In this document: in pieces, positions 3,423 to 23,929 of the stretch
Position numbering within the stretch: position 1 is the first letter of the stretch
How the letters are laid out: the number at the start of each line of letters is the position of its first letter
From: Lachnospiraceae bacterium
GTDB taxonomy: Bacteria > Bacillota > Clostridia > Lachnospirales > Lachnospiraceae
Assembly: GCA_014804755.1 (NCBI GenBank)
Contig: JAAUZE010000008.1
Coordinates: forward strand, 100,109-164,108
Direction of reading: 5' to 3'
DNA: 64,000 nucleotides
Translations under genes and position numbers: made by a program
Notes under the pieces: generated by a model
What the model saw: the letters and a program-made list of their open reading frames with translations, nothing else
Database searches by the model: none
What the model was told of the DNA's origin: nothing

Positions 3423-4847
3423 ATGGATCCGGTTGTAGTATTTGGCGCAGGAACCGGCGGGAAGATCGTGAAGTGGATGCTGAATGATTTTGGTATTCCG
3501 GTCAGGGCCTTTACGGATAACGGCAAGGATAAGTGGGGTACAATACTGGACGGGATTCCGGTGATTCCTCCGGATTCTTTATATGATGACGAAAGCAGGA
3601 TTGTGATCGCAAGCACCTGGGAGAGTGAGATCAGGAAGCAATTGACTGAAATGGGATTGAAAGACCGTGTGGTTGAGAAAGAGGTCTTTATGTATCAATA
3701 CCTGGAACAAAGCGCGGGGGTATATTCCGACCTTTCCGGGTATCCGATCGACAGCAGTAAAAAGCCAACGTTTTTATTCGGCACGGATCTCGGGTTATAC
3801 CAGGGCGGCGTGGAGAGCTGGACCTATACGGTAGCGGACGAGTTAAGAAAAAGGGGATACGGGATCAAGATTCTGACCAATCAGACCTCGCAGCCTGCAC
3901 CGGAACGGTTTCAAAACGACACCTATTATCTGAATATGCGGGGGCGGGAATATTGCAGTGGTTTACGTGATACAGTCCATGTGATCATGGAAAATGCGCC
4001 CTGCGTGGTCATTGATTCCTGGCAGAGCATGACGATGCTTGCGGCGGCAATCGTGAAAAGGCAGAATCAGGTTGCTGTTCGACAACTGATAGAGATAGTA
4101 CATAATAATCTGCCACGGCTCTTTGGAATCGTGAAGAAATTTGAAGCTGAGATCAATGCCTGTATGGGAGTGAGCAGGGATATTAATCGGAGTCTGGTCG
4201 AAGAATATCAAATGGCGCCGGAGAAGGTGCATTATAAAGAGAGCCCGGTAAAATATGATGCAGGCATAGGGCGGGATTATATGTCTGACGAGAGTCAGCC
4301 GCTTCGGATCGGGTACGCGGCGAGGTTGTCGAAAAGTCAGAAAAGGGCGGATTTACTGCCGGAATTGATGGACAGACTGATGGAACGCAAGGTTCATTTC
4401 CGCATGCAGATTGCCGGAAGCGGAGCTCTGCGCGATATGATTCAAAACCATATCACGGAAAAGGGGTACGCGCAGTTTGTGTCCCTTACAGGCTATATTC
4501 CAAGGGAAGAGATGAATCGTTTTTGGAGCAGTCAGGATATTTTTATTAATCTGTCCGAATACGAAGGCACTAGTCTGTCAATGTTGGAGGCGATGGGGAA
4601 CGGATGTGTTCCGATCGTTACGAAAGTCGCCGGATGCGAGGAGTTTGTCGCAGAGGACATGGGATATCTCTGTGAAATCGGTGATCTGGATGCCATGGCG
4701 GAAAAAATTGCATATCTTGACCGGCATAGAGAAAAGCTTGGGCAGATGGGACAGAAAGCGTGTGAATCCGCTAGAAGAAAATGCAGTGTGGAAGCATATG
4801 TGGATCATCTGCTGGGATTGACGGCTGAGGGCAGGGAAAAGGGATAA
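3423..4847 (+). CDS. GT-B fold glycosyltransferase (GT4-like) with an N-terminal Rossmann-like extension
   Basis: The C-terminal motif EYEGTSLSMLEAMGNGCVPIVT is GT4-like. GGAGGAGG lies upstream of the ATG at 3423. The listed ORF start at 3321 overlaps the upstream gene and is unlikely to be used. Confidence 0.7.
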   Translation: MDPVVVFGAGTGGKIVKWMLNDFGIPVRAFTDNGKDKWGTILDGIPVIPPDSLYDDESRIVIASTWESEIRKQLTEMGLKDRVVEKEVFMYQYLEQSAGVYSDLSGYPIDSSKKPTFLFGTDLGLYQGGVESWTYTVADELRKRGYGIKILTNQTSQPAPERFQNDTYYLNMRGREYCSGLRDTVHVIMENAPCVVIDSWQSMTMLAAAIVKRQNQVAVRQLIEIVHNNLPRLFGIVKKFEAEINACMGVSRDINRSLVEEYQMAPEKVHYKESPVKYDAGIGRDYMSDESQPLRIGYAARLSKSQKRADLLPELMDRLMERKVHFRMQIAGSGALRDMIQNHITEKGYAQFVSLTGYIPREEMNRFWSSQDIFINLSEYEGTSLSMLEAMGNGCVPIVTKVAGCEEFVAEDMGYLCEIGDLDAMAEKIAYLDRHREKLGQMGQKACESARRKCSVEAYVDHLLGLTAEGREKG

Positions 4848-13401: not shown

Positions 13402-14316
13402 ATGTGTAAAGGGATCATGTGGTTGGAGGAACTTATGAAAATCGGAGAAGTCAGTCTGCTGACAAATGATATAGCGGAAAGGAACATCCAATTGGACAGC
13501 AAAGACCTTATCCTATCAAAAGTCCATAAGCTGATGGCGGCATATCGGGACGGCCTGCTCGGCGGCGAAAGGCTGAAAGAATGCAATTCTTTCAACCACG
13601 AATCTGTACCGCATAGCACAAATTCACAGGCTGGAAAAGGGGCATGGATCATCAAGATGCCGGAACATGAGAACCCCGGTTTGGACAGGGCCTCGAAAGA
13701 GAACTACTTGTATTTTACGTTGCCGATGGCGTTGAATTATCAAAGAAATTCGTATGTTTTGTGGGAGTGCGCCAATCGGTTATACAAGAATGTGCCGGAG
13801 ATTTTTGACTGCGGACATGTATTGCGGATGGCGGAAGCCGATTTGAAAGATTTGCTGGTTCAATATAAGGTCGCATTGCAGCCGAATAAGCAGTCGGTCA
13901 TTTGGAAAACGCTCTGCGCCACGTTCCACGACAAATACGGTGGCGATGTACGGAGCTTTTTCTCGGCGATGAATTATGAAGTATCTGCCATAAAAGAATC
14001 CATAAGCAGGAATAAAAAAGCATTTCCTTATTTGGGCGGCAGTAAAATATGTAATTACTGGCTGTATGTGATGGAGCAGTACACCGATGCAAAATTTGTT
14101 GACCGCGAACATATTACTGTGGCGCCGGATACGCATGTCATCCAGGCGAGTGAGAAGCTGGGCGTGATCAGTGCGGAAGAGGCAAAAAGAGCAGATGTTC
14201 AGCAAATCGTTGCGGATAGATGGAATGAGCTGCTGCGCGGTACGGAATATGTTCCCATTGATATTCATACGCCGATGTGGCTGTGGAGCAGGGGGAAATT
14301 TAAAACAATATTGTAA
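13402..14316 (+). CDS. Hypothetical protein; possible HhH-GPD/endonuclease III-like fold (tentative)
   Basis: This is a long ORF with an uncertain start. The segment KICNYWLYVM...ITVAPDTHVIQASEKLGVI resembles the helix-hairpin-helix region of HhH-GPD proteins, but no catalytic motif was verified. Confidence 0.3.
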   Translation: MCKGIMWLEELMKIGEVSLLTNDIAERNIQLDSKDLILSKVHKLMAAYRDGLLGGERLKECNSFNHESVPHSTNSQAGKGAWIIKMPEHENPGLDRASKENYLYFTLPMALNYQRNSYVLWECANRLYKNVPEIFDCGHVLRMAEADLKDLLVQYKVALQPNKQSVIWKTLCATFHDKYGGDVRSFFSAMNYEVSAIKESISRNKKAFPYLGGSKICNYWLYVMEQYTDAKFVDREHITVAPDTHVIQASEKLGVISAEEAKRADVQQIVADRWNELLRGTEYVPIDIHTPMWLWSRGKFKTIL

Positions 14317-14393: not shown

Positions 14394-14654
14394 ATGGCAC
14401 AGGCAATGATTAATTTTCGGATGGATGAAGAATTAAAAAAGAATATGGAAGAAATTTGCAAAGATTTAGGATTAAGCATGACAACCGCATTTACTATTTT
14501 TGCAAAAAAAATGACAAGAGAAAAAAGAATTCCGTTTGATGTATCGTTAGATCCGTTTTATTCAGAAAGTAATATGTCATATTTGAAAAAGGTAGTAGAC
14601 GATATTGAATCAGGAAAATCGGTTCTTTCTGAGCATGAATTACTCGAGGATTAA
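14394..14654 (+). CDS. Type II antitoxin (RelB/DinJ-type N-terminus)
   Basis: INFRMDEELKKNMEEICKDLGLSMTTAFTIFAKKMTREKRIPF is a DinJ-like ribbon-helix-helix. It ends 3 nt before the YoeB gene. Confidence 0.8.
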   Translation: MAQAMINFRMDEELKKNMEEICKDLGLSMTTAFTIFAKKMTREKRIPFDVSLDPFYSESNMSYLKKVVDDIESGKSVLSEHELLED

Positions 14655-14657
14655 TGC

Positions 14658-14921
14658 ATGAAGATACTTTGGGAGGAGCGCGCCTGGGAAGAATACTTAG
14701 AGTGGCAGATACAAGACAAGAAAACATTAAAAAGGATTAATGCTCTCATCAAAGAGATACAAAGGAACTGCTACGAAGGGATTGGTAAGCCGGAACCATT
14801 AAAAAATAATTTAAGTGGGTGGTGGAGCAGGCGTATTGATGAAGTAAATCGAATTGTTTATAAAGAAAAAGATGGAGCGGTTATTATAGCATCATGCAAG
14901 GGACATTATGAGGATACATAA
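14658..14921 (+). CDS. yoeB: YoeB/Txe-family toxin (mRNA interferase)
   Basis: KILWEERAWEEYLEWQIQDKKTLKRINALIKEIQR...GIGKPEPLKNNLSGWWSRRIDEVNRIVY...HYED is a near-textbook YoeB sequence. Confidence 0.85.
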   Translation: MKILWEERAWEEYLEWQIQDKKTLKRINALIKEIQRNCYEGIGKPEPLKNNLSGWWSRRIDEVNRIVYKEKDGAVIIASCKGHYEDT

Positions 14922-15977: not shown

Positions 15978-16790
15978 TTACGTTGAAGTCAAGAGTTTTT
16001 TTGCCACAAAGAGAAAATGATTTGTCTTTCCAAGGTGCTCCGGTTTTTCACAATAAAAGAGGTGCAGTTTCAAATATTGCGCATATCCGGCATCATCAAG
16101 CTGATTGATTCGATCCTCCAATAATTCACTCATGCCGTCTGAGGCGATTTCGTGAATGATAGTAAGATCATTACGGGTGAGCATTTCACGACATTGATTT
16201 AGGTTAAAAAATACAAATGGGAAATTAACTGTTTTGAACGTTTCCCTATCATACTCACCGGTCAGAAGATAGTCCGGGTTATAGCCCCATTCCGTGTAGT
16301 GGAGCATGTCATTATTAATAAAAGCGACAAACAGGGTACCGTCTTTTTTCAACACTCGTTTCGCTTCCCTAATTGCTGTGTTCCGATCCTTTTCATCGTG
16401 CAAATGATAAAGCGGACCGAATAACAGGACAATATCAAACGTTTCATCGTCAAAATCGGATAGGTCGAGAGCGTTTCCCTGTCTGAGATCAATCGTAAGA
16501 CCGTCAGTTATCTTTTCACGGAAATCCGCCACGTTTTTATCCGCAAGTTCAACCGCATTCACGTGGTATCCCTTATTTGCAAAATAAAGACTGTACTCCC
16601 CGGCGCCTGCTCCGAGATCAAGAATTTTCATGCCCTGTTTTAGATATTTTTCAATATATGTGATCGTAGTCGTAAACTCAACTCTGGCTGCATTACTGCA
16701 GTTTAATCTGGATTTTTCATCAAAAAAATGGTAAACAGCATTCACGAGTTCCGCATCGTTCTTGATTTTTTTCAGTTCATTCAGATCCAT
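15978..16790 (-). CDS. Class I SAM-dependent methyltransferase
   Basis: ILDLGAGAGEYSLYFA (motif I) and FDIVLLFGPLYHL. Confidence 0.7.
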   Translation of the reverse strand: MDLNELKKIKNDAELVNAVYHFFDEKSRLNCSNAARVEFTTTITYIEKYLKQGMKILDLGAGAGEYSLYFANKGYHVNAVELADKNVADFREKITDGLTIDLRQGNALDLSDFDDETFDIVLLFGPLYHLHDEKDRNTAIREAKRVLKKDGTLFVAFINNDMLHYTEWGYNPDYLLTGEYDRETFKTVNFPFVFFNLNQCREMLTRNDLTIIHEIASDGMSELLEDRINQLDDAGYAQYLKLHLFYCEKPEHLGKTNHFLFVAKKLLTST

Positions 16791-16831
16791 TTTCGGTACC
16801 TATCTGAGTTGTTTTGGGGGTAATAGGAATG

Positions 16832-17248
16832 TTATTCTCTCCGAATAATCTTTCTCATACCGCAGCCGCAATATTCGTGCGGTATTTTTTTGAAACCGAG
16901 AGATTCGTAAAACGGTTCTTTTCCCGGCTCCGCAATGAGTTGAATACTTGACCTGCCGCCTGCGGGCGTGTGATCGGATACATAGGTTAACAGCATATTC
17001 AGAATGGTGGTGCCGATTTTTTGCTTTTGAAAATCAGGGCGCACGATGACATCCGCGATCAGATCATATTGTCCGTCGCCGATCAATCTGCCCATGGCGA
17101 TCGTTTCATTATGTTCAACCGCGGTTGCGATATACAGGCTGTTTCGGATCGCATTCTCTGATTGCTCCTTTGAAAAGTTGAGCCATCCGACACTTTCGCG
17201 CAGTTTCGCGTAGTCTTCATAAGATAAGGTATTTTCTTTGTATTCCAT
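16832..17248 (-). CDS. GNAT-family N-acetyltransferase
   Basis: RPDFQKQKIGTTILNMLL is the acetyl-CoA-binding motif A. The internal ATG at 17248 has an RBS, and the longer listed ORF adds an implausible N-terminus. Confidence 0.7.
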   Translation of the reverse strand: MEYKENTLSYEDYAKLRESVGWLNFSKEQSENAIRNSLYIATAVEHNETIAMGRLIGDGQYDLIADVIVRPDFQKQKIGTTILNMLLTYVSDHTPAGGRSSIQLIAEPGKEPFYESLGFKKIPHEYCGCGMRKIIRRE

Positions 17249-17255
17249 GCTGTGT

Positions 17256-17516
17256 TCATCCTTTCCGATTATTCGGGGTGAAAAAGCCCCAGACACAATT
17301 GCTGAATTCTCCGGCGGCAAATGTATGCTGCTGACCATGAATCTTAGCAGTATAAATAGGAAACTTGTATTCCTGACCGTATAAGGGGTCATGAACCGTT
17401 GCGGATTCATGGGTCGGTTTCCATTTGTACTTAAATATATTGACGCCAAATAGGTTTGTATCTCCATCGACACCGGTTACTTCATGCTGCCATGCTTGTT
17501 CTTTCGGGGATTCCAT
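17256..17516 (-). CDS. Hypothetical small protein
   Basis: RBS AAGGAAAGGA. It stops 7 nt before the GNAT start, so the two are probably co-transcribed. No motif was recognised. Confidence 0.4.
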   Translation of the reverse strand: MESPKEQAWQHEVTGVDGDTNLFGVNIFKYKWKPTHESATVHDPLYGQEYKFPIYTAKIHGQQHTFAAGEFSNCVWGFFTPNNRKG

Positions 17517-17713
17517 ATCGTCGGTTCCTTTCCTTGATAAGCCCTGTCAATCTGGTCTGTTTCATAAAATCATAGCATACTCGCGTTCATATTTCTATAA
17601 CAGTATTGATAAACTGGAATTTTCATGGTATTTGATCGTGAAAGAAATCAGATGGACAACCAGTGTGCGCAATTGCATAATGATTAAAAAACAAAAGAGG
17701 AGCGTGTCTGATT

Positions 17714-18640
17714 ATGAATACGTTACATTGTTGCATGAGGGAATATTTGGAATATTGTCATTATCGGAAGCGGTTGGATTCCAAGACATTGAAGGCTTAT
17801 CGTATTGACTTAAAACAGTATGAGGATTTTTGCGCCGGGGTATCTGATTGTTTTTCCCAAAATGCGGTGGACAATTTTATCACCTGTCTGCACAAACGGT
17901 ATAAGCCCAAAACGGTCAAGCGGAAGATCGCAAGCTTAAAAGCCTTTTTTCATTACATGGAATATAAAGAAATATTGCATGAAAATCCGTTCGTAAAGCT
18001 GGACGTCCGTTTTCGGGAAGCGAAGCTCTTGCCTAAGACCATTCCGTTTCATTCGATACAGGCATTTCTCTCTGCCATCTACACACAAAAAGAACAGGCA
18101 AAATCAGAATATCAGCGGCGATGCTGCGTCAGAGATATTGCCGTGATGGAGTTATTGTTTGCGACAGGAATGCGGATATCGGAGTTGTGTTCGTTAAAAC
18201 CCGCGGATATAGACCTTGAGAGCAATAACATTTTGATATACGGAAAAGGTGCAAAAGAGCGGATGATCCAGCTTGGTAATCGGGAGGTAATCGCTGCGTT
18301 GGTACAGTATCGGGAGACATTTAGAGAGGACATAGAGGTTTGCGGGTATTTTTTTGTGAATCGGTTACAGCATAAGCTATCCGATCAGTCGGTCCGTTTT
18401 ATGATCAATCACTATGCGGAGCTTGCGGGCATCACGCAGCACATCACGCCGCATATGTTCCGGCATTCTTTTGCCACACTTTTATTGGAGCAGGACGTCG
18501 ATATCCGCTATATTCAAAGGATGCTTGGGCACAGCTCCATTAGCACGACGGAGATTTATACGCATGTGTCGAACGCAAAGCAGAAGGATATTTTGGTGCG
18601 CAAGCATCCGAGGAATTTGATGGAGGTGAATGGAGGATAA
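17714..18640 (+). CDS. Tyrosine site-specific recombinase (XerC/D-integrase family)
   Basis: N-terminal SAM-like core-binding domain (FCAGV...KPKTVKRKIASLKAFFHYM). Catalytic signatures are ATGMRISEL (Arg), HMFRHSFATLLL (HxxR) and LGHSSISTTEIYTHV (Tyr). The last 7 nt of the CDS, through the stop codon at 18638-18640, lie inside the left inverted repeat. Confidence 0.9.
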   Translation: MNTLHCCMREYLEYCHYRKRLDSKTLKAYRIDLKQYEDFCAGVSDCFSQNAVDNFITCLHKRYKPKTVKRKIASLKAFFHYMEYKEILHENPFVKLDVRFREAKLLPKTIPFHSIQAFLSAIYTQKEQAKSEYQRRCCVRDIAVMELLFATGMRISELCSLKPADIDLESNNILIYGKGAKERMIQLGNREVIAALVQYRETFREDIEVCGYFFVNRLQHKLSDQSVRFMINHYAELAGITQHITPHMFRHSFATLLLEQDVDIRYIQRMLGHSSISTTEIYTHVSNAKQKDILVRKHPRNLMEVNGG

Positions 18641-18700
18641 TAAGAAATTATCTATTGAATAATGATTTGTATATTGTGAAAAACACCAATTTATCGGAGG
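18634..18700. repeat. Left 67-bp inverted repeat (IRL) of the candidate invertible cassette
   Basis: AGGATAATAAGAAATTATCTATTGAATAATGATTTGTATATTGTGAAAAACACCAATTTATCGGAGG is the exact reverse complement of 20587-20653 (67/67, checked base by base). Confidence 0.95.
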
Positions 18701-18705
18701 TTGAT

Positions 18706-19383
18706 ATGCATGTTCCTAAAGACGCTATTTTAATGCTATCTGGAGTATCATGTGTTGGAAAAACAACTGCAGCGTATGAGATAGTGAAGAATTATCCTGA
18801 ATTTAGAAGAGTAAGTGAATATGATTTGCTGAGAACAGTTGTGCGAACCGCATATGAATGTTTGGCTGAAGAAGCTTATATAGACAAGGATGAATTAATA
18901 AGTAAATATCATGCGTTGTTTGAGTCTATTACAAATAGCAATTTTGAAATTACCAAGTTACAGTCAGAACAATTACTTCCCTACGTTAAGGAGATAATTC
19001 TCAGACAACAAAGGCGACGGATACCAACTATAATAGAAGGTACTGGTATTATACCAAGCGCATATTTTCCTAATAATCAGCCATTAGCATGGTTATCAAA
19101 ACACGTAGTATTTATTAATCTATATATCTCTGACGAGGAAGATCACATTTCCCGAAGACAATCGCGTTCGGAGGAACGTGATTATCATGAATCGGCCAGT
19201 AAAACAGAAATAATTATTTCCCAATCTAGAGCAGGAAAAAATCAGTTATTACATATGCAGGCAATTAAGTTGCAGCAAAAATTTAAAAATGTGTTTAGCT
19301 TGGATGTTTCAAATTATACTCCAAGTCATATGGCAAGCAAAATAATGGAACTTGTTTTTGATTATTTTGATACCTATAACTAA
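18706..19383 (+). CDS. P-loop NTPase/kinase-like protein; function unknown
   Basis: Walker A is LSGVSCVGKTTAAYE. The ATG at 18706 lies 5 nt after the GGAGG that ends IRL. The listed TTG start at 18655 lies inside the repeat. Confidence 0.6.
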   Translation: MHVPKDAILMLSGVSCVGKTTAAYEIVKNYPEFRRVSEYDLLRTVVRTAYECLAEEAYIDKDELISKYHALFESITNSNFEITKLQSEQLLPYVKEIILRQQRRRIPTIIEGTGIIPSAYFPNNQPLAWLSKHVVFINLYISDEEDHISRRQSRSEERDYHESASKTEIIISQSRAGKNQLLHMQAIKLQQKFKNVFSLDVSNYTPSHMASKIMELVFDYFDTYN

Positions 19384-19392
19384 CAATATGAC

Positions 19393-20580
19393 TTATATAT
19401 CGTACAATTCGTTGTAGAGCTTTTCGGTCAAGGGAACCGCTTGTTCCCATACGTTTAAAAATGTATCATAAAGATGTTTTCCACGGCTTTGTATATCATT
19501 TTCGGAAATTTCTATTATTTCAAATGAAGAATTAGTAATTTGGAGAGGGTATCCTTCGCTGTCACATATTATTGGACTATAAAGCACGGCGTTATCACTT
19601 ATGATTATAGATTCTTTGCGTGGGCATTTGTATAGCCTAATCATTTCGCTTATAGGCAAGTGAAATCTATTTTGCATCCTAACAGCCGCTTCCAAACAGG
19701 TTTGTAAATCTGCTAAGAATCTCCTCTCTTTGTCTTTGCTTACAGCTTTGGTCATAGCTTCGCTTTTTGGATGTGGAAATAGACATTTAAAATCCACCCC
19801 ATTATTTATTCCTTCAATGGCTAGATACTTAAAAAAATCATCATTTTCACCTGTAAATATTTTTTTATTCCTTCTGCCATAAAACCATAAACGTTTGCCT
19901 TGATAATCAATTACATTTCGAATAAGTATTTTCGTAAGAACGCTGGTTGAAAATCCTTTATGAAAAAGAATATGCTCCTTGGTTATTTCAGGACTAACTA
20001 TTGTGAAATTTCCATGGTTGTCCTTCATAATTTGCTCAACCAAATCTCTGCAAGTGTCGGGAATCATTTGTTCACGTTGCAAGATCATTTTAACTTCTTT
20101 TATATATGCATTCCAGTGACTATTGAAGTTTTTGATATCTGTATTAGAATCTTTTGCCAATTCTTGTAAAAAACGTTTGAATTCCTCTCGTGATTTCTTA
20201 AAATTATCATTTTCATTATTTAAACGTATAGGGACATAACGATTTAGAGGTTTATCTACCCATGATGACCAATCGGGAATATGTTCAAATAATATTGGTA
20301 TAACTATACTTCCTCCTGGCTCTGCAAAATGTGCACCATACACTACACCTGCTTCATACATTAACCAAGGATTCTTAAAATTATCTGATGTTATACAAAC
20401 GATACATTTATCACTTCTCAAAAGATTATTATGTATTTCATTATCAACGGATGTCCCTTTATACATATCGGGAGAAAAAAACACTTCAATTTTATTTTCT
20501 AATGTATTCAAGATGAATTTTTTTGTTTCTAATGCTAATAATTTACTTTTATCTTTTGACCAGCTAATAAATATTTCCAC
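19393..20580 (-). CDS. TIR-domain protein with an uncharacterised C-terminal domain of about 250 aa
   Basis: The N-terminus IFISWSKDKSKLLALETKKFIL...VFFSPDMYKGTSVDNEIHNNL...CIVCITSDNFKNPWLMYEAG matches the bacterial TIR pattern (FISWS...S.DI..G......L.....I.......S.W...EAG), including the conserved Glu. The GTG start lies 6 nt after the GGAGG that ends IRR. Confidence 0.7.
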   Translation of the reverse strand: MEIFISWSKDKSKLLALETKKFILNTLENKIEVFFSPDMYKGTSVDNEIHNNLLRSDKCIVCITSDNFKNPWLMYEAGVVYGAHFAEPGGSIVIPILFEHIPDWSSWVDKPLNRYVPIRLNNENDNFKKSREEFKRFLQELAKDSNTDIKNFNSHWNAYIKEVKMILQREQMIPDTCRDLVEQIMKDNHGNFTIVSPEITKEHILFHKGFSTSVLTKILIRNVIDYQGKRLWFYGRRNKKIFTGENDDFFKYLAIEGINNGVDFKCLFPHPKSEAMTKAVSKDKERRFLADLQTCLEAAVRMQNRFHLPISEMIRLYKCPRKESIIISDNAVLYSPIICDSEGYPLQITNSSFEIIEISENDIQSRGKHLYDTFLNVWEQAVPLTEKLYNELYDI

Positions 20581-20586
20581 TTTGTT

Positions 20587-20653
20587 CCTCCGATAAATTG
20601 GTGTTTTTCACAATATACAAATCATTATTCAATAGATAATTTCTTATTATCCT
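20587..20653. repeat. Right 67-bp inverted repeat (IRR)
   Basis: Exact reverse complement of 18634-18700. Confidence 0.95.
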
Positions 20654-20771
20654 TTATCTTTAGAAACTACATCAACAGATACCGTTGAATACTTATTCGT
20701 CCAGCCCGTCAGACGACCTTTTATTACCCAATAACAAATGATCCAGTAGCATCCCATCTACCTAATTTTGT

Positions 20772-20800
20772 ATTGTACTACACGATTGTGCGTATTTCAA
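20772..20800 (-). promoter_or_regulatory. Putative sigma-70-type promoter firing leftward into IRR
   Basis: The minus strand reads TTGAAA, a 17-nt spacer, then TACAAT (plus strand ATTGTA at 20772-20777 and TTTCAA at 20795-20800). It lies about 120 nt outside IRR. Confidence 0.4.
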
Positions 20801-21025
20801 CATCTTTCTCAAATATTCAGTAAATACATACAAGCATTCTTAACTGCTGTCTTTTGCCATGAATATTAAGTTTGCTAATCTCGCCGCTTTACACTATCCA
20901 AGATTTATGAGAAAATGGTTCTGAATTAAGTCAAAACAGTTGAATAAAGTTGCGCAAAGCCCAACTTGCCAATATATACCCATTAACACAGTCTCCGTTG
21001 CTGGAGTATGCGAAAGGAGTCCATC

Positions 21026-21559
21026 ATGTTCTACACCCTCAAAAACGGAAAATCAGTCACTATCAGAAAACCAATCACCAAGGACGCGCAGGACATCGTC
21101 TCCATCATTTCCACCGCAGATGTGGAGACGTTGTTTTTGGCGCGTAATCCGGGCGAGTTCCGCACGACCGCGGAGCGAGAAGAAGCGGTCATTGAAGGCG
21201 TCTTAGCCGATGATGACAGCACATGGTTTGTGGCAGAATACGAGGGCAGGCTGGTAGGTCAATGCTCTGTGGGACTTGTGAGGCGGTATCAGAGATATCG
21301 GCATAGAGCTGAGGTTGCGTTTGTGATCCTGAAAGATTATCAAGACTTAGGAATCGGTGGGAAGATGATGGAGGAATGCATCAAGTGGTGCAGGGAGAAA
21401 GAAGTCACGCAGATCGAACTGGATGTGGTCACAGCCAATCAAAAAGCGCTTTCCATGTATTTGGGCTTTGGATTTGAAGTGACAGGGACCTTGCCGAATG
21501 CATTGCGCTATATGGACGGGACATACGCAGACGAATATAAAATGGTAAAGCGTCTGTAG
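21026..21559 (+). CDS. GNAT-family N-acetyltransferase
   Basis: ILKDYQDLGIGGKMMEECIKW is motif A. The RBS AAAGGAG precedes the ATG at 21026. Confidence 0.7.
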   Translation: MFYTLKNGKSVTIRKPITKDAQDIVSIISTADVETLFLARNPGEFRTTAEREEAVIEGVLADDDSTWFVAEYEGRLVGQCSVGLVRRYQRYRHRAEVAFVILKDYQDLGIGGKMMEECIKWCREKEVTQIELDVVTANQKALSMYLGFGFEVTGTLPNALRYMDGTYADEYKMVKRL

Positions 21560-21703
21560 AAAAAAGATTTCATATCCAATGAAAGATGTTGCAAGCGATT
21601 TTGAGGCATAACGGCTGAAAGGACACGCTCTTTTTAAAATGGTGTGTCTTCAGAAAAGCGCGTATTCTTGTTTATCAAATTGGAGTTAGAGGAGAAAATC
21701 TGT

Positions 21704-22564
21704 ATGGCAGATGACGCACTTACCTGGTTGTTGGAGACAGGAAATCCGGCGGTAAAACATAGGACAAAAATAGAATTACTTGGGCTGGAGGATGACCCAG
21801 CTGAAGCATTCACATGGATTGTGTCAAAACTGCCTGACGATTGGTACAGAGTAAAAGGTTTGTGGTATGCATATTATATCAATGCTCTGGCAGAATGTGG
21901 TCTGAATCAATCCATGATGCCGTCCGAATGGTTCGAAACAGCAATGGACAGAATTCGGGCAGGCTTTGACTTTGGCTGCGAAGCATTCATGCTATTACAG
22001 GCAATGGTTGCCCTTGGATTTGGTGGAAATCCTGATGTGCAGAAAATATTTGCGCTGTTGCATGATAATCGCTTACCGGACGGAGGTTTTCTTTGCGAAA
22101 GACGAAAAGGCAGACTAAAGTATATTCCTAAAAGTTGTTATAAAGCAGATTATTATGCGTTAAGATTATGCTCATGTTGCCGCAAAAAGGGAATCATTCT
22201 CGATATAGAACAGGAGTTAATTCGTTATTTTCTGAGCAGAAATTTATTATTTAGACGGGATAATTTGGATAAATTAATACTTGGGGATAATGAGAAAGAA
22301 GGCTCGCGCAATTCAGATGTATTCTATCCGTTTGAACCGATGCGAATGGGAATTCAAAACATTATGGAAACGATTTCCTCACTTGGGTACGGAAATGATC
22401 CTGCAACTGCAGCCGGTTGGAATTGCTTGAATTCAGCAAAAGATGATATAGGGCGGGTAATTCTGGCCGGTACACTTACGAAGTCTTGGTTGCCAAAGGA
22501 AAAAGTAGGAAAACCAAGTGCGTGGGCAACGTTTTATGCGCTATTGGCTGAAAAAGAACGATAA
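21704..22564 (+). CDS. Hypothetical protein (helical-repeat; possibly prenyltransferase/terpene-cyclase-like fold)
   Basis: RBS GAGGAGAA before the ATG at 21704. Aromatic-rich helical repeats are present, but no catalytic motif was verified. Confidence 0.35.
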   Translation: MADDALTWLLETGNPAVKHRTKIELLGLEDDPAEAFTWIVSKLPDDWYRVKGLWYAYYINALAECGLNQSMMPSEWFETAMDRIRAGFDFGCEAFMLLQAMVALGFGGNPDVQKIFALLHDNRLPDGGFLCERRKGRLKYIPKSCYKADYYALRLCSCCRKKGIILDIEQELIRYFLSRNLLFRRDNLDKLILGDNEKEGSRNSDVFYPFEPMRMGIQNIMETISSLGYGNDPATAAGWNCLNSAKDDIGRVILAGTLTKSWLPKEKVGKPSAWATFYALLAEKER

Positions 22565-22687
22565 ATCTTGAATTGCTGGACGTGACACCACAATTATAAC
22601 CACGAAAATGATACTTCCTTTTTGGAAGCGTTTGCCTTCTGAAAATAGCTTATACTGATTCTCAATACATCCGAATTGAGGGGAGAA

Positions 22688-23362
22688 ATGATAAAGGCGA
22701 TATACTTTGATTTGTTTTTTACATTGATTGTTCCGGCATACGAAAAAATAAATAATGAATTTGATATATTAAATTTGTCTGTTGGCGAGTGGGAACAGTA
22801 CGCCGAAAATGATATTTTATATCGTGAAAGGGCTTTGGGTTTCGTTAAAAATGAAAGAGAGATAATAGATAATATCGTGTCTCTTATGCCGTTTGAGGTT
22901 AGTATTGTTCAAAAACAGCAAGTTTTGAATGCTCGTGAAAAGAGGATGCAAAATGCCCTAAAAATGGTATCAAAAGAAATATTAGACGTTTTACAAAAAT
23001 TAAAAGCAGAGAATATCAAATTAGGGCTGATAAGTAATGCAGACTGCATTGATTGTAAATATTGGAACCAATCACCGTTATCTCCGTATTTTGATGATGC
23101 CATCTTTTCGTGTGACGTCGGATTGCTAAAGCCTGATAGACAGATTTATGAGTTAGCAATGCAGCGTTTGCATGTATCTCCGGAGGACAGTCTGTTTGTT
23201 GGTGACGGAGGTTCAAATGAATTATGCGATGCAAAGGAGGCAGGTATGGGTACTGTTTTTTCAGAAATGCTTGAAACGAAAAACGATGAGCAGAAAAAAA
23301 CAATTATCAAATATGCAGATTATCATATTAAGCATATGAGCGAACTGTTTTATTTGCTGTAA
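22688..23362 (+). CDS. HAD-superfamily hydrolase
   Basis: IYFDLFFTL (motif I-like), LISNAD (motif II) and FVGDGGSNEL (motif IV). Confidence 0.6.
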   Translation: MIKAIYFDLFFTLIVPAYEKINNEFDILNLSVGEWEQYAENDILYRERALGFVKNEREIIDNIVSLMPFEVSIVQKQQVLNAREKRMQNALKMVSKEILDVLQKLKAENIKLGLISNADCIDCKYWNQSPLSPYFDDAIFSCDVGLLKPDRQIYELAMQRLHVSPEDSLFVGDGGSNELCDAKEAGMGTVFSEMLETKNDEQKKTIIKYADYHIKHMSELFYLL

Positions 23363-23452: not shown

Positions 23453-23929
23453 ATGCCAATACAAATATCAGCCCAAGAGACAATCAATGCACTAAATGCA
23501 ATTTTTGAGAAACATAAAATGGAGCGTATTTGTGTTTTGGGAACAACATGTTGTGGTAAGACAACCTTGTTAAAACAAATTCCTGGTTGTGTAGATTTGG
23601 ATGATGAATTATGGCCGCAATTAACCAAAGAAGAAGCAGATTTTATCAGCCAAAAACCATGGACAAATGAAATTGGTGACTTTATAGATAAACTGGTTTA
23701 TGAAAAAATATCAGTAAAAGTTGGTCATCCGTTGTTCACTACAATCATTGTAGATTGCGATGTAGTAATATATTTGGATATCAGCGATGAGTTATTGGCT
23801 GAACATTGTAAGAAGCGGGGAAATGATTTTAAAGATTCCATAAATGTAAAGAAATCTATAGAAGGAGATTGGAATAATCACAGAAAAAGTGGTGGAAAAA
23901 CTTTTTATTATTTAACCGTCAATGAGTAA
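23453..23929 (+). CDS. Small P-loop NTPase/kinase-like protein
   Basis: Walker A is VLGTTCCGKTTLL. The RBS is GGAGGA. Confidence 0.55.
   Translation: MPIQISAQETINALNAIFEKHKMERICVLGTTCCGKTTLLKQIPGCVDLDDELWPQLTKEEADFISQKPWTNEIGDFIDKLVYEKISVKVGHPLFTTIIVDCDVVIYLDISDELLAEHCKKRGNDFKDSINVKKSIEGDWNNHRKSGGKTFYYLTVNE

Follow-up and report, generated by a model that had tools for sequence, protein, structure and literature searches.

The stretch of DNA analysed here, called the window below, comprises 64,000 nucleotides (64 kb) from a Lachnospiraceae bacterium (assembly GCA_014804755.1, contig JAAUZE010000008.1, positions 100,109 to 164,108 of the forward strand). It contains a gene for a tyrosine recombinase that reads into a cassette of two genes, which encode a P-loop protein and a TIR-domain protein, and the cassette is enclosed by a left and a right inverted repeat (IRL and IRR; Table 1). 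The two arms are complementary at 67/67 nt, with 1,886 nt between them. The arm pair is far above chance because the runner-up inverted repeat in 16000-23000 is only 25 nt long at 80%. The two open reading frames (ORFs) between the arms are convergent, with a tail-to-tail gap of 9 nt, and a few short overlapping ORFs of 50-69 aa in the same interval are probably spurious. The G+C content is 0.29-0.37 over 18600-20800, compared with 0.42-0.47 in the recombinase gene and 0.43-0.51 over 20800-21600, and the AT-rich stretch continues for about 250 nt beyond IRR.

Each arm has two recognizable ends. At the outer end lies an 18-nt core, GGATAATAAGAAATTATC, which occurs exactly twice in the 64-kb window, once in each arm and on opposite strands; the chance expectation for this core, allowing up to 3 mismatches, is 0.08 matches. 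At the inner end each arm terminates in GGAGG, 5-6 nt ahead of a start codon (ATG at 18706 and GTG at 20580). Since the genes face inward and GGAGG stands at both arm ends, the repeat is a common 5' leader with a ribosome-binding site (RBS) for the P-loop and TIR genes. The sequences abutting the outer repeat ends (GTGAATGG / TTATCTTT) show no direct repeat. A search of 17000-21600 against Rfam gave no match, so that no known riboswitch or leader was found in the repeats or the distal flank.

The recombinase matches the Pfam family Phage_integrase (PF00589, 8e-42) and has an N-terminal SAM-like domain. Its closest solved structure is that of E. coli XerD (1a0p, 3e-34). The alignment with XerD retains ATGMRISEL, GKGAKER, HMFRHSF and LGHSSISTTEIYTHV together with the complete set of six catalytic positions (R, K, H, R, H, Y), which we take to correspond to XerD R148, K172, H244, R247, H270 and Y279. 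The stop codon of the gene (TAA, 18638-18640) falls within IRL, which starts 7 nt before the end of the ORF. With a core at both arms and a recombinase with the complete R-K-H-R-H-Y set adjoining IRL, the locus has two of the features of a tyrosine-recombinase switch. The protein belongs to the Xer-like superfamily but is neither XerC nor XerD, because it scores 246.6 bits with the XerD model (NCBIfam cutoff 329.6) and 238.7 bits with the XerC model (cutoff 335.15), although these are its best NCBIfam models. A role in dimer resolution also fails because two inverted sites bracket genes here, instead of a single 28-bp dif site. Membership of the FimB/FimE family was rejected (66.6 bits with NF007370, cutoff 221; 63.2 bits with NF007371, cutoff 222), as was an integron, since the integrase model gives 112.4 bits against a cutoff of 265 and identical inverted sites bounding two convergent genes exclude an integron gene cassette. 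The sole recombinase present is of the tyrosine type, which excludes membership of the serine invertases (Gin, Cin, Pin, Hin) and leaves a likeness in layout only. A transposon or insertion sequence (IS) was also rejected, as there is no transposase in or adjoining the segment and no target-site duplication.

An earlier reading of the window, made from the letters alone (the sequence-only reading), had reported the exact complementarity of the two arms, the start of IRL within the last codons and stop of a 308-aa tyrosine recombinase with HxxR and catalytic Tyr motifs, and two convergent genes in an AT-rich interval of 1,886 bp. The complementarity was reproduced at every position, the XerD alignment confirmed the recombinase motifs, and the convergent layout stands, with the qualification that low G+C is not confined to the interval between the arms. 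The role of the repeats as leader and RBS had been missed.

Table 1. Positions, strands and properties of the features of the recombinase-cassette locus in the window.
Feature	Position	Strand	Remarks
Promoter-like site TGGACA-17-CATAAT	17653..17681	+	Consensus match only (10/12); upstream of recombinase gene
Xer-like tyrosine recombinase, presumed invertase, 308 aa	17714..18640	+	Reads into IRL
IRL	18634..18700	+	Overlaps recombinase stop codon; inner end is the GGAGG RBS of the P-loop gene
Left core site GGATAAT-AAGAA-ATTATC	18635..18652	+	Dyad arms, asymmetric 5-nt spacer; presumed crossover site
P-loop protein, NMP-kinase-like fold (predicted), 225 aa	18706..19383	+	Conserved ATG start; behind recombinase gene in window orientation
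TIR-domain protein, 395 aa	19393..20580	-	GTG start; N-terminal TIR domain, predicted C-terminal PLD-superfamily-like domain
IRR	20587..20653	-	Inner end is the GGAGG RBS (20591-20587) of the TIR gene; core at 20635-20652
AT-rich non-coding distal flank	20654..21007	-	Inward promoter-like sites; weak hairpin 20688-20672

Comparison with related loci indicated that the cassette is found in both orientations. In L008, whose recombinase shares 83% amino acid identity with that of the window, window positions 17676-18642 are collinear and the cassette (18685-20602) is reversed, and the strand switch lies inside the repeat. L007 also has the TIR gene behind the recombinase, opposite to the window. 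As judged from assembled contigs, both orientations occur between near-identical flanks in three independent lineages, with the breakpoints within the repeats. In the P0032 group (repeat of 27 nt), L035 and L037, with 10 similar ones, are opposite to L036 and L038-L041, and the flanks are 100% identical over 3,282 and 1,489 bp. In the P0103 group (repeat of 73 nt), L060, L061, L062, L064 and L069 have the TIR gene behind the recombinase and L063 has the P-loop gene there, with flanks that are 99.8-100% identical. The proteins of this group are close to those of the window (recombinase 83%, TIR protein 90% and P-loop protein 87% identity). In the P0110 group (repeat of 34 nt), L071 and L072 are opposite between flanks that are 100% identical over 2,280 and 905 bp. 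Their contigs, of 79,076 and 79,077 nt, were assembled from two samples of one project.

The junctions in these pairs should rest on repeat-spanning reads and not on the choice of the assembler, because the repeat is shorter than the assembler's k-1. For the P0103 group k = 141 was read from the megahit contig names (k141_), and for L035 and L036 we take the k of the Logan assembler to be 31 (k-1 = 30); L071 and L072 have NODE-type names, in which k is not stated. In L035 and L036 the sole mismatch between the arms, at repeat position 6, remains on the flank side whichever way the cassette lies. The crossover in this pair therefore lies inward of position 6, at or beyond the spacer. In 21 samples of the same project, cassette-only contigs end at the outer repeat edge or at the position-6 mismatch, which is the signature that a de Bruijn graph would be expected to give if both junctions coexisted in one sample.

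The cassette is widespread. In the database the TIR protein forms 94 clusters (35-91% identity) and the P-loop protein 95. In 36 of the 94 TIR clusters the longest contig measures 1.88-2.06 kb, the size of a cassette that short-k assemblers have cut at its repeats. A scan of species-representative genomes found loci in Butyrivibrio, Oscillospiraceae, Lachnospiraceae, other Clostridia and Bacilli/Anaeroplasmataceae metagenome-assembled genomes. Wherever a locus has both genes, they are convergent and nearly abutting, even at protein identities as low as about 30%. In nearly every locus with both flanks available (L006-L010, L012-L016, L018, L020, L025, L035, L047, L060 and L071), the cassette is enclosed by exact inverted repeats of 18-113 nt, and the distance from repeat to start codon is 4-40 nt in most lineages. 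A tyrosine recombinase adjoins the cassette or lies one operon away in most lineages with enough flank. A second architecture occurs in L010, L012 and L013, where the recombinase is divergent from the cassette, and promoters must therefore sit in the short intergenic gaps. The sequence-only reading had predicted that the whole cassette flips, and had named a lack of inverted junctions in all reads and assemblies and a lack of repeats in homologous loci as findings that would speak against it. Junctions of the inverted state are present in L008 and in the three lineages described above, and homologous loci do have the repeats. The prediction is supported by the relatives, and the window's own sequence was seen in one resolved orientation only.

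The core is the most constant part of the repeat. A dyad of the form RATAAY-N4-6-RTTATY lies at the outer repeat end in all homologous loci examined. The spacers are asymmetric and vary among lineages, yet match between the two arms of one locus. Beside recombinases with at least 46% identity to that of the window, the core arms are GGATAAT, and beside those with 29-38% identity they are [CA]AATAA[CT]; this is the pattern that co-evolution of recombinase and site would give. In L016 (5928-5964) the core forms a palindrome whose arms measure 15 bp. A run of T follows it on the strand that reads outward, and it scores as an intrinsic terminator for outgoing transcripts.

Our data indicate that the locus is best explained as a site-specific DNA inversion switch, and we put the probability of this at about 0.7. 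The Xer-like recombinase would recombine the two inverted GGATAAT-AAGAA-ATTATC cores at the outer repeat ends, and the 1.9-kb segment would flip. The catalyst would be the adjacent recombinase, as is presumably the case in the window; in some relatives a trans-acting paralogue would take its place. The cassette ORFs start 5-6 nt past the GGAGG of the repeat, which leaves almost no room for a private promoter, so that transcription would have to enter from outside. One outside input would be the recombinase gene, which ends within the repeat, or in relatives an upstream defence-type operon, and the other would be whatever the distal flank supplies. Inversion would swap which ORF joins which outside transcription unit, and both ORFs would stay complete. 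In the state seen in the window, the recombinase gene would feed the kinase-like P-loop gene and the distal flank the TIR gene; in the flipped state, the recombinase gene would feed the TIR gene and the distal flank the kinase-like gene. The outcome would be two subpopulations with different TIR-to-kinase expression. That the family as a whole is a recombinase-driven invertible cassette is highly probable, and the copy in the window strain is probably active. The chances that inversion also toggles the expression of both genes are about even.

The geometry of the locus, with the RBS and the recombinase stop codon in the repeat and no intervening terminator, argues for orientation-dependent expression; a scan of the window found no terminator-like sites between the recombinase and P-loop genes. 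Two inward promoter-like sites, TTGAAA-17-TACAAT (20800-20772) and TTGATG-18-GATAAT (20675-20646, with the core as -10), are found in the distal flank, which might act as the promoter of the TIR gene. Promoter-like sites in the window region are no commoner than in shuffled sequence, and the sequence of the distal flank is not conserved among related loci. A promoter inside the repeat, or a hybrid one with the core GATAAT as -10, was also considered by eye and in scans, and nothing consistent across lineages was found. A strong promoter seen by eye in L016 failed the scan criteria.

Several observations weigh against an inversion switch, or against parts of it. The exact proteins of the window were found in two samples only. 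One of these is resolved and has the window orientation, and the other is broken at the repeats (67 nt, longer than k-1 = 30) and is uninformative on orientation. The P-loop gene lies behind the recombinase in every resolved contig of the groups P0007 (10 places), P0015 (2 of 3 places resolved) and P0159 (4 places), and switching may be rare or biased. In L071 (5427-5546) and L072 (762-881) the recombinase gene is reduced to its final 40 codons, yet their orientations differ, and in L006 a recombinase is absent from the 6 kb around the cassette. The catalyst is thus not in every case the recombinase next door, and a paralogue acting in trans is likely for L071/L072 and L006. In close relatives the repeat reaches a further 30-55 nt inward from the core without loss of identity, which crossover at the core does not explain; this calls for gene conversion or for a shared site with a regulatory or accessory function. 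With respect to expression, both flanks of the window carry equally good promoter-like sites, and scans of the distal flank in four relatives found no consistent inward promoter (none in L016, L025 and L080, and chance level in L047). The effect of inversion on expression could be small.

The repeats might instead be the ends of a mobile or exchangeable cassette, that is, docking sites for recombinase-mediated exchange between genomes, with inversion as a purposeless by-product. The cassettes of L007 and L006 share 92% and 89% DNA identity with that of the window, whereas their recombinase is 46% identical in L007 and absent in L006, and the homology stops at the outer repeat edges. The cassette is also far more AT-rich than the recombinase gene. 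Because closely similar cassettes stand beside divergent or absent recombinases, with homology ending at the repeats and an AT-rich composition, cassettes appear to move between docking sites. Within its 113-nt repeat, L006 (5882-5994 and 7881-7993) has two different cores per arm, and in L045 three cores (GATAAT-TGAAT-ATTATC, GGATAAT-TTTTAG-TTATCC and GGATAAT-AAGTA-ATTATCC) are stacked upstream of the TIR gene (3858-3960). These stacks look like a record of repeated capture at the sites of different recombinases. Exchange as the whole explanation is nevertheless unlikely, since two inverted sites yield inversion and not excision, no transposase is present, the neighbours of the outer repeat ends are not direct repeats, and flipping between identical flanks was observed three times. 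Moreover, separate searches of phage records, plasmid records and viral contigs found no relatives of the cassette. Exchange and switching are not mutually exclusive.

General homologous recombination between duplicated leaders could also have produced the inversions, with the neighbouring Xer-like gene doing another job. The differing orientations of L071 and L072 despite a remnant recombinase would fit this, as would the perfect identity of the repeat from the core to the RBS in close relatives. Furthermore, the interior of the window repeat (18652-18700) resembles a chimera of the TIR-side and P-loop-side leaders of L007 (5948-6000 and 7876-7927), which suggests gene conversion between the window arms. 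Against this, the repeats are just 18-37 nt long in L012, L013, L035 and L010, and L035/L036 still flips. Repeats of 18-37 nt are too short for efficient RecA-dependent exchange. The conservation of the dyad core and its asymmetric spacer at the outer end in all lineages, with arms that track the recombinase clade, the presence of a tyrosine recombinase at or near the cassette in most lineages, and the mapping of the L035/L036 crossover beside the spacer also make an origin by general recombination very unlikely. It is also conceivable that the window element is frozen, having inverted in the past and now being a fixed recombinase-kinase operon next to a separate TIR gene. This would account for the single orientation seen for the exact sequence of the window and for the lineages with a single orientation in all resolved assemblies. 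However, the two arms match at 67/67 positions, no catalytic residue is missing from the intact recombinase ORF, and both orientations are present in the most closely related group (83% recombinase identity), while consensus assemblies conceal minority orientations. We consider a frozen element quite unlikely.

The TIR protein scores above the Pfam TIR_2 cutoff. The glutamate of its WxxxE motif, E76, is invariant in TIR homologues and occupies what we take to be the position of the catalytic residue of TIR NADases; the protein has the TIR fold and the glutamate expected of a TIR-domain NADase. PADLOC gave only a generic TIR-TM match, to the N-terminal TIR part. No Pfam match was found in the C-terminal half. 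In an AlphaFold model built from 21 homologues (predicted local distance difference test, pLDDT, 85), this half is predicted to have a PLD-like fold. No H-x-K-x4-D (HKD) motif was seen in this domain, so that it may serve for binding and not as a nuclease. In L045 (5188-5655) and L046, whose TIR protein is 91% identical to that of the window, the two stop codons are separated by an insert of about 93 nt. Both are independent contigs and both end at the same point in the P-loop gene, at about residue 107, which suggests another repeat or an insertion there.

Homologues of the P-loop protein are about 225 aa long and have an invariant Walker A motif, GVSCVGKTT (GxxxxGKT), and a lid-like arginine cluster (R150, R151, R154 and R158). 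The protein reaches no Pfam or NCBIfam family cutoff, with AAA_33 below cutoff, and neither cassette protein had a significant match in profile searches against solved structures, so that only the comparison of folds was informative. The best Foldseek matches of its AlphaFold 2 model (pLDDT 93) are CMP, AMP and dTMP kinases and dephospho-CoA kinase (E values 2e-6 to 1e-4, TM-score about 0.5). The protein is therefore predicted to have a fold like that of nucleoside-monophosphate (NMP) kinases. A lone homologue, 75% identical to the P-loop protein of the window and without TIR gene, repeats or recombinase, is found in L050-L059 (for example L050 1862-2578), where it is flanked by two proteins rich in PEICLxAVKQNG repeats and lies upstream of rpoB. 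L019 (5426-7143) contains a non-invertible relative, in which a 192-aa guanylate-kinase-like P-loop protein is encoded upstream of a TIR homologue (32% identity). The two genes share a strand, and the first overlaps the start of the second; bracketing repeats and a recombinase were not found at this locus. This arrangement supports a functional link between kinase and TIR protein.

Some of the related cassettes have neighbours of defence type, and in relatives the side away from the recombinase is often occupied by an operon that reads inward. In L035 (5963-8954) and L036 (958-3949) the genes of a ThsB_TIR protein (170 aa) and a PNP_UDP_1-STALD protein (472 aa) lie between recombinase and cassette and read into the cassette, and an IS3-family element lies on the side opposite to this Thoeris-like pair. 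In L060 (1-3923; also L008 7952-8956) the flank that faces away from the recombinase has an operon directed into the cassette. Its products are a TIR-STALD protein of 612 aa, a thymidylate kinase, an HMUDK_hel protein and a thymidylate-synthase-like protein, and the operon may be an undescribed nucleotide-based defence system. In L070-L072 the gene of a 612-aa TIR protein lies on the non-recombinase side and reads toward the cassette. The cassette of the window itself was not assigned to Thoeris, since PADLOC gave TIR-TM only and nothing significant for the P-loop protein, and the Thoeris-like genes are neighbours of the relatives and not of the window.

The layout of the locus has a classical precedent. 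Of the known systems, the Mu G and P1 C segments come nearest in layout, tyrosine-recombinase invertons in enzyme, and TIR-based defence systems in biological neighbourhood. In the G segment of phage Mu and the C segment of phage P1, short inverted repeats enclose an invertible segment with two inward-facing alternatives, which are transcribed from outside, so that orientation sets which one is read, and the recombinase gene (gin or cin) adjoins the segment. The cassette is similar in layout, with transcription from outside predicted for it. Gin and Cin, however, are serine invertases that need an enhancer and Fis, whereas the enzyme of the cassette is an Xer-like tyrosine recombinase. The alternatives in Mu are homologous variable C-terminal exons on a constant N-terminus, whereas the cassette has two unrelated complete ORFs with their own starts and an RBS within the repeat. 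The cargo also differs, being tail fibres in the phages and a TIR protein with a kinase-like protein, on the chromosome of gut Firmicutes, in the cassette. With invertons driven by tyrosine recombinases (fimS with FimB/FimE, C. difficile RecV and gut invertons), the cassette has in common the type of recombinase, short inverted repeats and, as proposed, reversible heterogeneity of the population. Some inverton recombinases serve several loci in trans, as would be consistent with L071/L072 and L006. Invertons flip a promoter or a small regulatory element of about 150-800 bp, whereas the cassette flips two whole genes with the promoters apparently staying outside, and its recombinase is outside the FimB/E family.

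In phage defence, phase variation has been described chiefly for the specificity subunits of restriction-modification systems and for promoter invertons. The inversion systems and shufflons of hsdS (PMC9881135, PMC7672463) resemble the proposed switch in that inversions by tyrosine recombinases in defence loci change the protein output, and they too are widespread in host-associated bacteria. Their repeats lie inside coding sequence and shuffle homologous half-genes, whereas those of the cassette lie in 5' leaders and alter no ORF. TIR is not mentioned in the text of one survey (PMC9881135). Thoeris and other TIR anti-phage systems share with the cassette a TIR domain with a conserved catalytic glutamate, and cassettes of relatives lie directly downstream of the Thoeris-like pair of L035/L036 or the TIR-STALD, thymidylate-kinase, HMUDK_hel and thymidylate-synthase operon of L060. 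The partner in the cassette is NMP-kinase-like and not a ThsA-type SIR2 or Macro effector, and the TIR protein has a PLD-like C-terminal domain. Full-text literature searches found promoter invertons, intragenic invertons and hsdS shufflons, and no description of an invertible TIR and kinase cassette. The sequence-only reading had considered the switch not to be a described class. This is upheld for the cargo and the type of recombinase but not for the principle, given the precedent of Mu G and P1 C. As far as can be told, what is new is the unit of two unrelated ORFs with a shared leader in the repeat, its cargo and the family, and the principle of inversion is classical.

The module may plausibly serve phage defence; the sequence-only reading had suggested a phase-variable defence or toxin module. 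A more far-reaching proposal, which we regard as tentative, is that the cassette is a widespread undescribed phase-variable immune module of gut Firmicutes. Cells would alternate between the TIR-PLD-like effector and the nucleotide-kinase-like protein, as an "armed versus safe" pair or as alternative outputs on Thoeris-like operons, and the same sites would allow cassettes to be swapped between genomes and recombinase loci. If an inversion switch is confirmed, it would be a conserved one in which two unrelated whole genes trade places behind fixed transcription units. If expression toggles as well, gut Clostridia would carry a potentially costly TIR effector in a fraction of the population, heritably and reversibly. 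A nucleotide-kinase-like protein would also be linked functionally to TIR signalling, a pairing that recurs in the L019 operon and beside the TIR-STALD/thymidylate-kinase operons of the L060 type. Three natural populations already hold both states, so the switch is directly testable. The GGATAAT-N5-ATTATCC core with its small Xer-like enzyme might be a compact tool for inversion or cassette exchange.

The surroundings of the locus in the window contain other genes of possible note. A RelB/YoeB toxin-antitoxin pair (86 and 87 aa; 14394-14921) lies about 3 kb upstream of the recombinase gene, and upstream of this pair are a gene for an AAA_14/DUF4143 ATPase and an unannotated 304-aa ORF (13402-14316). 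At 23453-23929, 3 kb downstream of the cassette, there is a second small P-loop ORF of 158 aa, which has the Walker A motif GTTCCGKTT and no Pfam annotation.

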